Virus record (IMG/VR): IMGVR_UViG_3300010262_000137
Coordinates: 1-64,000 of that record
DNA from: a virus
Taxonomy: Duplodnaviria > Caudoviricetes
DNA: 64,000 nt
Strand: one strand, 5' to 3'
Part shown: piece after piece, positions 2,856-53,475 of the stretch
Position numbering within the stretch: the first letter of the stretch is position 1
Layout of the letters: each line of letters begins with the position of its first letter
Position numbers and translations under genes: made by a program
The notes under the pieces: generated by a model
Databases searched by the model: none
Told to the model about the DNA's origin: nothing
The model's input: the letters and a program-made list of their open reading frames with translations, nothing else

Positions 2856-3719
2856 ATGAAAATTATTACAATTATGAACCAAAACGGTGGAGTTGCAAAA
2901 ACTCATACTGCTACAAATTTGGCACATGGTATTGGAAAGAAAGGTTTCAAAGTCCTATTAATTGATGCCGATCCACAAGCAACAAGCACTGATACTGTAT
3001 TGCAAATTGGAAATGAATTTAGAAAGCAAGAGATTGAAGAAGTAAGGAAAATGATTAAGGAAGGAATTCCAAAGTACAGGGCTTTAGAACAAGTGGTTTC
3101 TAAACCTAGCCCAGAATATGATTTGGCAGATGTATTTGATGATCCTGATATCATTGAAGAAGCTATTTATACAACACAAAATCCTAATGTTGACATAATA
3201 GCTAGTTCAATGAAACTAGATAATACAGATATGAAAATACGAGATGATAGAACAAGATCTAACATTACAATATTATCTGACGCATTAAAAAATGTAGAGG
3301 CAAAATATGATTTTGTTATTTTAGATGAAGCGCCTAGAAGTGATAACATAACATCCAACTCGTTGATTATCAGTGATCTTGTGATAATCCCTATAAAAAC
3401 AGACAGAAAGTCAATGAAAGGTTTTTTAAGAACGATTAAATCCATGCTTCTTATTCAAAAAAGAAACAAGGTAGATTTTGACTTTAAACTTTTATTGCAG
3501 ATGGTTAATAAAAATAGAAATGATAAATCATTGATAGAATTCTATCAAAGTGAATTCGCTGATGATGTTTTCAAACAAACAATAAGATTTCAAGCTAAAC
3601 CAATCAGTGATGCAGATTTTAACAATACATATGTTATAGAGAATGAAAAATCGAATGTTGCTAAAGATTATATGAATTTCATTGATGAAGTATTAGATTA
3701 TTTCAATCAGAAAGGATAG
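2856..3719 (+). CDS. parA: ParA/Soj family partition ATPase
   Basis: NQNGGVAKT deviant Walker A, LLIDADPQAT, YDFVILD, SDLVIIP. Confidence 0.9.
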   Translation: MKIITIMNQNGGVAKTHTATNLAHGIGKKGFKVLLIDADPQATSTDTVLQIGNEFRKQEIEEVRKMIKEGIPKYRALEQVVSKPSPEYDLADVFDDPDIIEEAIYTTQNPNVDIIASSMKLDNTDMKIRDDRTRSNITILSDALKNVEAKYDFVILDEAPRSDNITSNSLIISDLVIIPIKTDRKSMKGFLRTIKSMLLIQKRNKVDFDFKLLLQMVNKNRNDKSLIEFYQSEFADDVFKQTIRFQAKPISDADFNNTYVIENEKSNVAKDYMNFIDEVLDYFNQKG

Positions 3720-15728: not shown

Positions 15729-16217
15729 ATGAGCAGTATTGATGTAGTTGGGATTAGATTAGTCAAGGAACGTGATATTAAGTATGATCGTAAGTTAAAT
15801 AGTGTCGAAGATGCAGTTGAAGTTATAGCAAATGAAATGAAGTATTTAGATAGAGAGGTCATGATGGTTGCTAATCTTGATAACCATAATCGTATTATTA
15901 ACACTCATATTGTAAATGTTGGCGGTATTAATTTTTCCTTTATTGATCCCAAGAATGTTTTTAAAGCTGCTCTTTTAAGTAATGCAACAAAGATTATGCT
16001 TGTTCATAATCATCCAAGTGGCTCTTGCAAACCTAGTAATGAAGATATTCAGATGACAGAGTCTATGAAAAAATTAGGGGAACTTATGACATTACCATTG
16101 CTTGATCATATTATTATTGGAAGTCATAGCTATTATTCAATCACGGCTGATATGGAATATGAATATGATTTATTTGAAAATGAAGAAAGCATTGATTTTG
16201 ATATAGAAATGGAATAG
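15729..16217 (+). CDS. JAB/RadC-like protein with acidic tail
   Basis: DREVMMVANLD, HNHPSGSCKPSNED, LLDHIIIG motifs; ends DFDIEME. Confidence 0.9.
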   Translation: MSSIDVVGIRLVKERDIKYDRKLNSVEDAVEVIANEMKYLDREVMMVANLDNHNRIINTHIVNVGGINFSFIDPKNVFKAALLSNATKIMLVHNHPSGSCKPSNEDIQMTESMKKLGELMTLPLLDHIIIGSHSYYSITADMEYEYDLFENEESIDFDIEME

Positions 16218-49601: not shown

Positions 49602-49933
49602 TGAATGAAGCAAAGATAATCAATATGAACAAAGGAGCAAAGATTGACTATGAAATTATGGGAAATAAAATTATTTTCAATGACGAATTAATGTTGAATC
49701 TTGCTAAGTATGAGCGTGATGACCCTATGCATATTGATATATGCATGGATGAGTTTGGGTGTTTGTGTATGGGATTGGCTAACAATTATATTGCACAAAT
49801 TGATATTCCTGCTCGTGAATATGAGTTTGTTGAAGATGGTGTGGATGAAGAAGGAAAAACTAAATATAACAAGGTAGCAATTCCATTTGATATTAAAAAA
49901 GTAGTCATTACATTATGGGAGGTTGAAGAATAA
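49601..49933 (+). CDS. phage hypothetical protein
   Basis: Co-oriented, directly upstream of the DGR target. Confidence 0.55.
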   Translation: MNEAKIINMNKGAKIDYEIMGNKIIFNDELMLNLAKYERDDPMHIDICMDEFGCLCMGLANNYIAQIDIPAREYEFVEDGVDEEGKTKYNKVAIPFDIKKVVITLWEVEE

Positions 49934-51012
49934 TGGAAACAAATTTTGATGCGATCAAATTAGCAGTAGAAGCAGCTACTGGTGGAAAAAATACAGTATT
50001 ATTTGATGATTTAGGTAATCCTTCAATCATGGTTAGAATTCCTAAATTTAAAATTTCAGATGTAATCGCTGGTGGATCTAATTCTGTTCATCCTGCGTTT
50101 ATTGTAAATGGTGTAGAAAAAGATGAAATATTCATAAGTAAATATCAAAATATCGTAGTAAATGATCGAGCTTATTCTTTACCGATGCAAGATCCAAAAG
50201 CTTATATTGATTTTGATACAGCAAAAAAAGCCTGTGAAAACAAAGGTAAGGGTTGGCATCTAATGACAAACGCAGAATGGGCTGCAATTGCTTTATGGTG
50301 TAAAAAGAATGATTACTTCCCAAGAGGTAACAACAATTACGGAAGTGATGTATCTTACCCTCATGAAAAGGGTGTAGAAACATATAACTATGACGGTAAA
50401 ACTGGTAGAGTTGCTTCGGGTTCTGGGCCAGTTACATGGGCTCATGATGGTAGCAACTCAGGTATATTCGATTTAAATGGTAATGTTTGGGAATGGGTTG
50501 GAGGACTTCGTTTAGTTGATGGTGAAATCCAAGTCATCGCCGATAATAATGCAGCAAATGGTGCAGATATGACAGTGAATTCTAGTCATTGGAAAGCCAT
50601 TGATAAGAGTGGAAACTTAGTTGCTCCAAAATCAGCTAATACATTAAAGTTTGATTATACAGTAGATCCAGGTACTACAAATGTAGGAAAAGGAGTTCCA
50701 AAATTAGTAACAACTTTAACTCATCAACAAACAAGTGATGAACCATATGCAGCAGGACAATTTGAAGATATGACGGCAGATGATGGTATCACTCCACCAG
50801 AAATATTAAAGTCGTTAGCGATTTATCCTGAGGGAACAAAAGCAAATCATGGAGATTACATCTATATGAGAAATAAGGGAGAGCGTTTGCCTTTTCGTGG
50901 TGGCCTTTGGCATAACGGAAGCACTGCAGGCGTGTTCGCTTTGAATTTGCACAACCCACGCTCTTATGCTGACTATGATAGGGGTTTTCGCTCCGCTTTC
51001 GTAGGTCTGTAA
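49933..51012 (+). CDS. DGR target protein, FGE-sulfatase/C-type-lectin fold (probable receptor-binding protein)
   Basis: GWHLMTNAEWAAI, GIFDLNGNVWEW, C-terminal RGG.W...G.FA...GFRSA variable region. Confidence 0.9.
   Translation: METNFDAIKLAVEAATGGKNTVLFDDLGNPSIMVRIPKFKISDVIAGGSNSVHPAFIVNGVEKDEIFISKYQNIVVNDRAYSLPMQDPKAYIDFDTAKKACENKGKGWHLMTNAEWAAIALWCKKNDYFPRGNNNYGSDVSYPHEKGVETYNYDGKTGRVASGSGPVTWAHDGSNSGIFDLNGNVWEWVGGLRLVDGEIQVIADNNAANGADMTVNSSHWKAIDKSGNLVAPKSANTLKFDYTVDPGTTNVGKGVPKLVTTLTHQQTSDEPYAAGQFEDMTADDGITPPEILKSLAIYPEGTKANHGDYIYMRNKGERLPFRGGLWHNGSTAGVFALNLHNPRSYADYDRGFRSAFVGL
50890..50997 (+). repeat. DGR variable region (VR), 108 bp
   Basis: Colinear with three downstream repeats; encodes the last CLec strands. 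Confidence 0.92.
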
Positions 51013-51130: not shown

Positions 51131-51640
51131 GTGGTAATGATGGATAGTCAATTAGGATTGTATGAGACTCAGCTTGTCATACAGCAGGAGGTTTATGATA
51201 TGTTACTATATGCCTATCCGTTGTTAGATCATTTTCCAAAGAGTCAAAAATTCTCTTTAGTTCAAGATATCAAAAGAAGTATGGATTTAGTTCTTAAATA
51301 TGCAATTACTGCTAATAAAAAATACAGCAAGACTACAACGCTTGAAAAAATGGATGTAGAACTAGCTGCTTTAAAGGTTTATATAAGATTAGCATTTGAA
51401 TTGCATTTTTTTAAAGGCGAAAAGCACTATATGGAAATGTCTCGAAGATTAGATAAAGTCGGCAAGATGTTAGGTGGCTGGATTAAGGCTGAAAAAGAAA
51501 AATCAGGGAATAAAGCTATTGAAAAAACATATGTTTGCGAGAAATGCGGTGCAAAAATAACTCCTAAATCTTATGAATATTCAATAAGGAATTTTGGTAA
51601 ATCTCTTTGTTATGCATGTCAAAAAAGTCATAAGGATTAG
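51131..51640 (+). CDS. avd: Avd accessory protein with C-terminal zinc-finger extension
   Basis: FPKSQKFSL, LKVYIRLA, VGKMLGGWIK four-helix-bundle motifs; CEKC...CYAC tail. Confidence 0.88.
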   Translation: MVMMDSQLGLYETQLVIQQEVYDMLLYAYPLLDHFPKSQKFSLVQDIKRSMDLVLKYAITANKKYSKTTTLEKMDVELAALKVYIRLAFELHFFKGEKHYMEMSRRLDKVGKMLGGWIKAEKEKSGNKAIEKTYVCEKCGAKITPKSYEYSIRNFGKSLCYACQKSHKD

Positions 51641-51653
51641 ATGAATAGTGAGA

Positions 51654-51719
51654 ACTTTTCGTGTTGGCGTTGGATTCTGTACGCTTTGGCTCTGCTCTCC
51701 GAGAGGTTTTCGCTCCGCT
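51654..51719 (+). repeat. TR-like unit R0 (internally deleted, 66 bp)
   Basis: Keeps CTTTTCGTG 5' and AGGTTTTCGCTCCGCT 3' ends but is 42 bp shorter. Confidence 0.7.
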
Positions 51720-51761
51720 CTATTCTTTTATGCTATTTTGGGATTAGGCTATTAGCGTTTG

Positions 51762-51869
51762 CCTTTTCGTGGTGGCTCTTTCAATAATTCTAGCAATGCA
51801 GGCGTGTTCGCTTTGAATTTGAACAACCCACGCTCCAACACTTGGAACAATCTAGGTTTTCGCTCCGCT
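51762..51869 (+). repeat. template repeat R1
   Basis: 108 bp colinear with VR; 9 AAY codons. Confidence 0.9.
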
Positions 51870-51900
51870 TTATCCTTATGGGATTAGACTATTATGAAGA

Positions 51901-52008
51901 CCTTTTCGTGGTGGCGCTTTTTGGGAGCATTCGAATGCAGGCGTGTTCGAATTGAATCTGAATAACCCACGCTCTTATGCTGACAATGATAGAGGTTTTC
52001 GCTCCGCT
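51901..52008 (+). repeat. template repeat R2
   Basis: 108 bp colinear with VR; 5 AAY codons. Confidence 0.9.
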
Positions 52009-52049
52009 CTAACCCAATAAAGAGTAATGGGATTGGACTATATGAATTG

Positions 52050-52157
52050 CCTTTTCGTGGTGGCAATTGGAATAACGGAAGCAATGCAGGCGTGTTCGCT
52101 GTAAACTTGAATAACCCACGCTCCAATTCCAATCACAATGTAGGTTTTCGCTCCGCT
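52050..52157 (+). repeat. template repeat R3 (most canonical TR, adjacent to the spacer)
   Basis: 108 bp colinear with VR; 10 AAY codons. Confidence 0.92.
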
Positions 52158-52320
52158 CTGCTCTTGCAATTAGGTATATGATGGATACGTCTGTCATTTC
52201 AAATCAAGGGAATAAAGGAGTCTAATTCCATGCTGAACAAGCAAAAAAATATATAAAGATGAAAACCGATTGTAATGTTAAATGAACTCCGTTAAGCATC
52301 TTAAAAATTAGGTGATGATC

Positions 52321-53475
52321 ATGGCGAAAATAAAGAATGTATATGACTATATCGTTAGTGATGAAAACATATACAATGCTTATTTGAACGCTCGCAAAAG
52401 CAAAAGATATAGAAAAGATGTACTCATATTTACTCAAAATCTATAAGCAAATCTAGTTAAGATTCAAAATGAATTAAGAAGCGAAGTTGTTGATTATCCT
52501 AAATATAGAGAGTTCTATATTTACGAACCAAAGTGTCGCTTGATTCTTGCTCAAGACTTTCCTGAAGTGATAAAACAGTGGGCGTTTTATCAAGTTTTAA
52601 GTCCTATGTTTACTAGGATGTACATCAAGGATTCTTATGCATGCATTAAAGGAAAAGGACAAATTGCAGCAATTAAAAGGCTTCATTATTGGCTTAAATT
52701 GGTCAATAGCAAAAGATACAATAAACTGAAAAACGGTTTAGATGTATCTGATTTAAACAAGTGGTATTACTTGAAAATAGACTTTAGCAAATACTTTTAT
52801 AGAGTAGATCATAAAGTCATGATTGATGCATTGAAGAAGAAAATTAAAGATGATCGTGTTGTTAGATGGCTTGAAACACGCATAGAAAGCCCTGATATGC
52901 CTTTTGGATTACCTAAAGGCATGCGTCCTGAAGATGTTGAAATGAGTGAACGTTTATATGATAAAGGAATGCCAGTAGGCGCTTTGGTTTCACAAATGTT
53001 AGCGAATGTTTACAATGATCAGATAGATCAATATGCTAAAAGGACATTAGGAATTAAGTATTATATACGCTATCAGGATGATATTGTGGTGCTTTGCGAT
53101 GATAAGAAACAAATAAAAGAATGGCATCATAAACTAGAGAAGTTCGCAAATGATGTCATGAAAATGGAAATGAACCAAAAGACCTGTATTAGACCAATCA
53201 ATCAAGGGATAGAATTTTGTGGTTTTCGCTTATGGGCTACACATATTAAAATAAGGAAAAGCACTTCCTTGAGAATTAAAAGGAACTTAAAAGGCGTGAT
53301 GAAACGATACAATGAAGGAGATTGTACTTTAGAACACGCTACGCAAGTAGTTAATTCATATTTTGGACTGCTGAAACATTGTAATAGTTATGCATTAAAA
53401 ACTGAAATATTTGGTGATTATGAAAAAGGAATAGATGGTTGGTTTGTACTGACTAGAAATCAAGGTAACGATTAA
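52321..53475 (+). pseudogene. DGR reverse transcriptase with in-frame TAA at codon 42
   Basis: MAKIKNVYDYIVSDENIYNAYLNARKSKRYR...NL*ANL...YEPKCRLI, YLKIDFSKYF, PVGALVSQ, YIRYQDD; stop at 52444-52446. Confidence 0.88.

Follow-up and report, generated by a model that had tools for sequence, protein, structure and literature searches.

The DGR locus described here carries three full templates in tandem, each with an upstream leader and a 3' tail of its own, and these templates have a single spacer in common. The pairing between the leaders and one segment of that spacer, here called the dock, is a real and conserved RNA helix. Judged by its sequence and position, this helix is of an already known type, the cPRT Stop duplex of the Bordetella phage BPP-1; what is new is an arrangement of 2-4 tandem templates, each with its own leader and tail, around one common spacer, and the literature searched held no account of tandem templates with a common spacer. 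This shared-dock arrangement probably decides which template gets copied. A cryo-EM study of BPP-1, which dealt with a single template, showed that the primer is positioned and the polymerase stopped by RNA helices on either side of the template (bioRxiv 10.1101/2023.10.23.563531), and the phage family analyzed here is a natural example of three or four templates presenting both helices to a single spacer. This suggests that two short RNA addresses alone determine template identity in DGRs, and that they can work even when hundreds of additional nucleotides are looped out. The arrangement gives directly testable predictions on the cis-priming mechanism, would account for the origin of mosaic receptor-binding tips in gut phages and points to a simple design rule for multiplexed templates in engineered DGR mutagenesis systems.

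Layout of the locus

The window, by which we mean the whole 64-kb stretch of DNA that was analyzed, was taken from an 86-kb IMG/VR virus record that contains one VR. Its close relatives are prophages of Holdemanella and 'Eubacterium sp. TM05-53' genomes as well as sequences from human gut metagenomes, and a blastn comparison with a phage GenBank collection gave no match. The gene order is target gene, terminator, avd, a decayed unit termed R0, TR1, TR2, TR3, the single spacer and the DGR reverse transcriptase (RT). A DGR-type RT and a bAvd protein adjoin the templates, as identified by RVT_1 and bAvd matches. The parts of the locus, all on the + strand, are the following.

49933..51012, +, DGR target gene with an FGE-sulfatase / C-type-lectin-like fold (ORF; Pfam PF03781)
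50887-50997, +, VR at the 3' end of the target gene (VR/TR repeat family D1)
51137..51640, +, avd, bAvd-like, whose product ends in a CxxC...CxxC zinc ribbon (Pfam PF22296, 1.8e-26)
51632..51719, +, R0 region, composed of a weak leader copy and a decayed template
51632-51643, +, weak leader copy of R0, AAGGATTAGATG, forming 8-9 bp with the dock (duplex -8.9 kcal/mol)
51654-51719, +, decayed template of R0, A-poor and with an internal deletion
51739..51750, +, leader 1, TGGGATTAGGCT, candidate upstream partner in the cPRT-Stop duplex of TR1
51759-51869, +, TR1 (51759..51878 with its tail); tail GCTTTATCCTT, complementary to the primer strand at 5/5 proximal and 5/5 distal positions
51879..51890, +, leader 2, TGGGATTAGACT
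51898-52008, +, TR2 (51898..52018 with its tail); tail GCTCTAACCC, primer complementarity 4/5 + 3/5
52028..52039, +, leader 3, TGGGATTGGACT, the dock partner in the minimum-free-energy fold
52047-52157, +, TR3 (52047..52167 with its tail); tail GCTCTGCTCTTG, primer complementarity 4/5 + 5/5
52161..52301, +, single spacer RNA, Rfam RT-14 (RF02921, 63.5 bits)
52178-52197, +, Avd-binding-type hairpin with a UACG loop in the spacer (covariation)
52205..52218, +, primer strand, CAAGGGAATAAAGG (alignment A3; tail:primer covariation)
52212-52218, +, nearly invariant motif ATAAAGG at the end of the primer strand
52219..52230, +, dock, AGTCTAATTCCA, candidate strand contributed by the spacer to the cPRT-Stop duplex
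52231..52249, +, remainder of the cPRT Stop element, with a short hairpin (52231-34 with 52240-43) and then an A-run (52244-52249)
about 52254-52301, +, long 3' stem-loop of the spacer
52321..53475, +, DGR reverse transcriptase, interrupted by a TAA (RVT_1 match)

The RT reading frame contains an in-frame TAA at 52444-52446 (codon 42), a position occupied by GAA (Glu) in 15/15 related loci that are readable there. The DGR copy in the window may therefore have been inactivated recently, or the TAA may stem from a mistake in sequencing or assembly. In regards to transcription, we counted nine promoter-like sites in the scanned region versus 10.9 expected, with the linkers between units not above chance, and observed terminator-like hairpins on both sides of the avd to RT segment. 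A single transcript across the array is thus plausible.

The leader:dock helix and its conservation

The sequence-only reading had located 12-mers upstream of the three templates, starting at 51739, 51879 and 52028, and had claimed that each pairs over 12/12 positions with 52219-52230 with G.U as the sole deviation from Watson-Crick pairing. Both the positions and the pairing hold, with 10 Watson-Crick and 2 G.U pairs for leader 1, 11 and 1 for leader 2, and 10 and 2 for leader 3. The partial copy that it had noted, GGATTAGA at 51634-51641, does overlap the avd stop codon TAG (51638-51640), and the ancestral leader copy sits within the last avd codons. One dock therefore faces three full leaders and one weak leader, and the locus contains a single RT-14 copy. 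The degenerate pattern TGGRRTTRGRYT, which covers all 12-mers that could form a full duplex with the dock, occurs five times in the 64-kb window versus 0.32 expected, and five occurrences were reached in 0/100 shuffles. Three of the five are the leaders, another is the complement of the dock itself, and the last is a match at 15749. The calculated leader:dock duplex energies are -16.5, -18.9 and -18.2 kcal/mol for leaders 1, 2 and 3, respectively, and 0/300 shuffled leaders were as good. The part of the helix that is conserved amounts to 11 bp (GGG...CT with AG...UCC), as the 12th pair (T with A52230) is missing in the L006 and L072 lineages. As a side observation, the match at 15749-15760, TGGGATTAGATT, is identical to the TR2 leader of relatives, lies inside an unrelated ORF (15729-16217) and is most likely there by chance.

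We fetched 61 viral loci with related RTs (designated by L numbers) and aligned 40 template units from leader through dock (alignment A3). Covariation was strongly positive, which establishes the complementarity as genuine RNA pairing. Specifically, RNAalifold predicted the long-range leader:dock helix unaided from the 40 units, 96% of the cells in this helix are paired, and 7/10 pairs show compensatory changes. The covariation score, calculated for the leader:dock helix and the Avd-binding hairpin jointly, is 0.708 versus 0.253 for shuffles, with 0/500 shuffles as high, and when the partner strand was slid as a control the paired fraction fell to 36-55%. The first three pairs (G-C, G-C and G.U) are invariant in 40/40 units. 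The third of these, the G.U formed by alignment columns 7/236 (52031 with 52227 in the window), is invariant across RTs down to about 30% identity, indicating that it is a conserved feature rather than a tolerated deviation, and this invariance suggests that it may have a role in recognition. The hairpin that follows the dock (52231-52243) is 85% paired versus 30-50% when slid, according to a named-structure count; RNAalifold run on a short spacer snippet did not predict this small hairpin.

The window belongs to a group of 23 loci found here (window, L003-L007, L068-L084), which we refer to as the shared-spacer family. Their units are 140-150 nt long (leader, template and tail) and are present in 2, 3 or 4 copies followed by one spacer. 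The leaders of these 23 short-unit loci are GGGATTAGACT, GGGATTAGGCT, GGGATTAGATT or GGGATTGGACT, the exceptions being R0 and the avd-end copy GGGATTAGATG of L007/L082, and these four variants deviate from a perfect complement of the dock solely by transitions that are wobble-compatible. The linkers that flank the leaders vary in both length and sequence. The dock itself is invariant in 20/20 short-unit loci in which it falls inside the fetched DNA. As the dock never varies in this family, there is no case in which the dock and all of its leaders changed together, and a second shared-spacer family with a different dock was not present among the 61 RT-related viral, 13 metagenome and 3 genome loci.

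The known system that this helix resembles most is that of BPP-1, where cryo-EM showed that the last avd codons (avd369-379) pair with Sp59-70 (Handa et al., bioRxiv 10.1101/2023.10.23.563531). That duplex lies two nucleotides past the priming adenosine and adjoins the TR-tail:primer duplex. It is one part of the 'cPRT Stop', the others being a short hairpin and A-minor adenosines; cis-primed reverse transcription depends on this element, which also marks the cDNA end, and such duplexes were predicted in 207/278 Avd-containing DGRs (bioRxiv 10.1101/2023.10.23.563531). Compensatory mutations did not restore activity in BPP-1, indicating that pairing alone is insufficient there (bioRxiv 10.1101/2023.10.23.563531). 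The likeness extends to several features of the window. There is an 11-12 bp duplex between a segment just upstream of the TR and the spacer, located right after the primer motif and predicted priming site; this duplex would adjoin the tail:primer duplex, and it ends 7-8 nt before the TR; its distal G-C pairs are followed by a short hairpin and adenosines; and an Avd-binding hairpin is present at the 5' end of the spacer. The invariant G-C, G-C and G.U pairs would also fit the A-minor contacts seen in BPP-1. The difference is that in the window the spacer strand has three or four alternative partners upstream and an equal number of alternative tails across about 450 nt, which for TR1 and TR2 puts entire templates between tail and spacer.

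Two other systems bear comparison. The spacer (52161-52301) matches Rfam family RT-14 at 63.5 bits versus a gathering score of 48.1, over the full model positions 1-144, and the primer motif and dock correspond to a conserved segment that is unpaired in the Rfam model. The dock is unpaired there because its partner lies outside of the model, which lacks an upstream partner strand and hence has neither the long-range helix nor the one-to-many arrangement. The inverted repeats a1/a2 of retron msr-msd, where priming occurs from a 2'-OH, are alike in that flanking RNA helices determine where a cis-primed cDNA begins and where it stops; in contrast to the window, retrons have a single template, an RT of another clade, no Avd and no retrohoming.

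Template usage and proposed competition for the dock

Each VR was assigned to the templates of its own locus by dynamic programming in 13 distinct loci (14 entries, as L007 and L082 are one prophage). The VR derives wholly from the last TR in L003, wholly from the middle TR in L075 and L076, and wholly from the first full TR in L007/L082 and L080; it is a mosaic in the window, L006, L070, L077, L078, L083 and L084. In each assignment 5-12 template adenines are substituted and mismatches elsewhere number 0-2, and the VR of the window is a TR3|TR1|TR2 mosaic with 0 non-A mismatches and 7 adenine substitutions. This pattern is the mark of mutagenic retrohoming and not of ordinary recombination. 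Thus, all of the templates are used in nature. The 3' segment of the VR, which is the most recent, comes from the last template in five loci, from the middle template in five and from the first in two. The cDNA starts with the sequence that ends up as the 3' part of the VR, and the frequent origin of this part from a non-terminal template indicates that priming must be possible at internal tails. Successive partial conversions are known from BPP-1, and the mosaic VRs fit such a process.

The four tails in the window differ from each other yet each stays complementary to one primer strand, with scores (proximal plus distal) of 4+5, 5+5, 4+3 and 4+5 for R0 to R3, respectively; the flank of the VR, which scores 4+2, does not. 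By a register-based count, the distal 5 nt of a tail are paired with the cognate primer at 4.46/5 positions versus 3.39/5 with non-cognate primers, a difference that 0/5000 permutations matched; calculated tail:primer energies are weak, are no better than those of composition-matched shuffles and do not separate cognate from non-cognate pairs. The tail:primer helix covaries, and the dock follows directly after the ATAAAGG motif. A52216 is predicted to be the priming adenosine, as its position is analogous to that of SpA56-G57 in BPP-1. Taken at the level of complementarity, the template selector is bipartite, consisting of the leader and the primer-complementary 3' tail.

Because three leaders share one dock on a single transcript, the leader:dock pairings are necessarily mutually exclusive, as the sequence-only reading had proposed. 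The minimum-free-energy fold of 51625-52320 has leader 3 on the dock, and in it the TR3 tail pairs with the primer strand. When alternatives were forced, placing leader 2 on the dock cost +0.8 kcal/mol, leader 1 +4.8 kcal/mol and an unpaired dock +8.6 kcal/mol, and the ensemble pair probabilities with the dock are 0.71 for leader 3, 0.21 for leader 2 and about 0 for leader 1. Competition, which follows logically from the shared dock and from BPP-1 biochemistry, would be nearly isoenergetic for two of the leaders. The tallies of 3' VR segments are loosely in line with these probabilities, given a small sample of related loci. TR1 is used although the naked-RNA ensemble gives leader 1 nearly no share of the dock, indicating that protein, co-transcriptional folding or other factors matter. 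The earlier reading had likened the locus to the docking/selector scheme of Dscam exon 6, with the leaders setting either which template is used or how far the RT reads. Real pairing and mutual exclusivity stand, and the likeness is apt in that one docking sequence has several complementary selectors with one pairing per RNA molecule. The comparison is an analogy only, as splicing and the choice of a reverse-transcription template are not homologous processes; in addition, the helix is the known cPRT Stop duplex, the selector in the window is bipartite, and the variant concerning how far the RT reads is disfavored.

We lean toward an explanation in which one priming/stop module serves several templates, with the choice made by competition among leaders and tails. 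The DGR RNA would run from the 3' end of avd through R0, TR1, TR2 and TR3 to the single spacer, with a leader of 11-12 nt as the upstream strand and the dock as the spacer strand of the cPRT Stop duplex. By analogy to BPP-1, we infer that the helices are required for priming and stopping; RT-Avd would need the leader:dock and tail:primer helices side by side in order to start cDNA synthesis, so that only one template could be loaded per RNA molecule, with its tail setting the start and its docked leader the end of the cDNA. Which template is loaded would depend on the leaders and tails competing for the single spacer. Repeated mutagenic retrohoming, involving differing templates and differing lengths of cDNA or conversion tract, would then lead to single-source or mosaic VRs. 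A broader version, in which the spacer acts remotely on any template via a bipartite address, competition picks the scaffold, retrohoming shuffles cassettes and the templates themselves are occasionally rewritten, strikes us as evenly balanced between right and wrong; here competition for the dock could be biased by co-transcriptional folding, by the zinc-ribbon Avd or by duplex strength.

An unlikely alternative, though the one that survives best, is that only the TR3 leader is functional and those further upstream are vestiges of the avd 3' end brought along by duplication of the leader-plus-TR unit, with TR1 and TR2 reaching the VR by some other route, such as recombination or TR-to-TR conversion. 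The leaders clearly originated by duplication from the end of avd, the first leader in L006 and L072 still overlaps the avd stop codon, the thermodynamic model favors leader 3, and TRs do get rewritten, as in L003 where the 5' half of R1 is an A-mutagenized copy of R2. However, the leaders have been kept while the linkers diverged, with every leader change wobble-compatible with the dock, and the tails of TR1 and TR2 have also stayed complementary to the primer strand. Furthermore, in L007, L075, L076 and L080 the entire VR comes from TR1 or TR2 with differences at adenines alone, and TR3 of the same locus is unchanged.

A reading that we consider slightly more doubtful is that priming always occurs at the TR3 tail while the docked leader sets how far the RT reaches, so that cDNAs span 1-3 templates and are integrated in parts. 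The BPP-1 duplex is indeed a physical polymerase stop, and mosaics in array order exist (L006 T3|T4, L077 R2|R3 and L084). This mechanism fits poorly with the origin of VR 3' ends, and of whole VRs, from non-terminal templates; such 3' ends are found in the window, L070, L075, L076, L080, L083 and L007. In addition, the R3|R1|R2 mosaic of the window is not collinear with any single long cDNA, and the tails of internal templates retain primer complementarity. Finally, it is highly improbable that the motif is conserved for a reason other than pairing (as a protein site, promoter or DNA recombination site) or that its complementarity arose by chance, for although it is short, lies in an AT-rich region and has one extra degenerate-pattern match at 15749, that match is inside an ORF, the excess of pattern matches is large, promoter-like sites are not above chance, and the abundant compensatory covariation over 40 units effectively refutes this possibility.

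Own-spacer arrays and traces of array history

A second type of array, with a spacer for each template, is present in L008, L009, L010, L013, L015, L016 and L062, whose RTs are 42-51% identical. These units are 210-300 nt long with a complete spacer in each, and there are five of them in L008, four in L015 and three each in L016 and L062. Like the shared-spacer family, these arrays have several templates for one VR and the same anatomy of leader, primer, dock and hairpin. They differ in that each unit has a cognate, co-varying dock with partial orthogonality, whereas the window family has one dock. Within a locus the leaders fit their own docks (four pairs in L015, five in L008 and three in L062), with cognate leader:dock matches of 10-11/11 versus 6-11 for non-cognate combinations. 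The own-spacer arrays span L008 725-1966, L015 2177-3265, L062 2528-3288 and L016 2460-3280, and some of their leader/dock pairs, such as that of L008 unit 4, are nearly orthogonal. We also considered the VR flank, GGTCTGTAATTTT, as a functional match to the dock; this loose resemblance was rejected as a coincidence because the flank encodes the conserved C-terminus of the target (…GL*), which is unchanged in L015 and L016 despite their different docks.

The C-terminal zinc ribbon of Avd (encoded at 51500-51637 in the window) is present in the window family, L008, L015 and L062, all of which have multiple templates, and also in single-template L014. Multi-template L016 lacks it, and so do the remaining single-template relatives with a readable Avd C-terminus (six loci). 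The link between the zinc ribbon and template arrays is thus only partial.

Several observations concern how the arrays may have formed and changed. The TR2-TR3 linker (52016-52028) contains AATAAAGAGTAAT, which is like a degraded primer motif plus dock start, AATAAAGGAGTCTAAT, and is kept in the L006 and L072 lineages. This segment may be a remnant, in which case the short units would have arisen from long units by losing most of a spacer. In three loci (L005 2606-2713, L068 9355-9506 and L074 753-914) the end of the VR is fused straight to the template array without avd; either the assembly collapsed across the repeats, or avd was lost through a genuine VR/TR recombination.

The templates themselves carry signs of mutagenesis. 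The 5' half of TR1 in L003 (2817-2924) equals the 5' half of TR2 (2956-3063) changed only at TR2 adenines (A>T, A>G and AA>GG), and orthologous templates differ between loci mainly at adenines. The array templates seem, from these sequence differences, to be occasional targets of mutagenic retrohoming. The R0 template, which has an internal deletion in the window, is nearly gone in L003 and L004; in L007/L082 it is full-length and A-poor (L007 2666-2773). R0 looks like a template that was itself struck by mutagenized cDNA.
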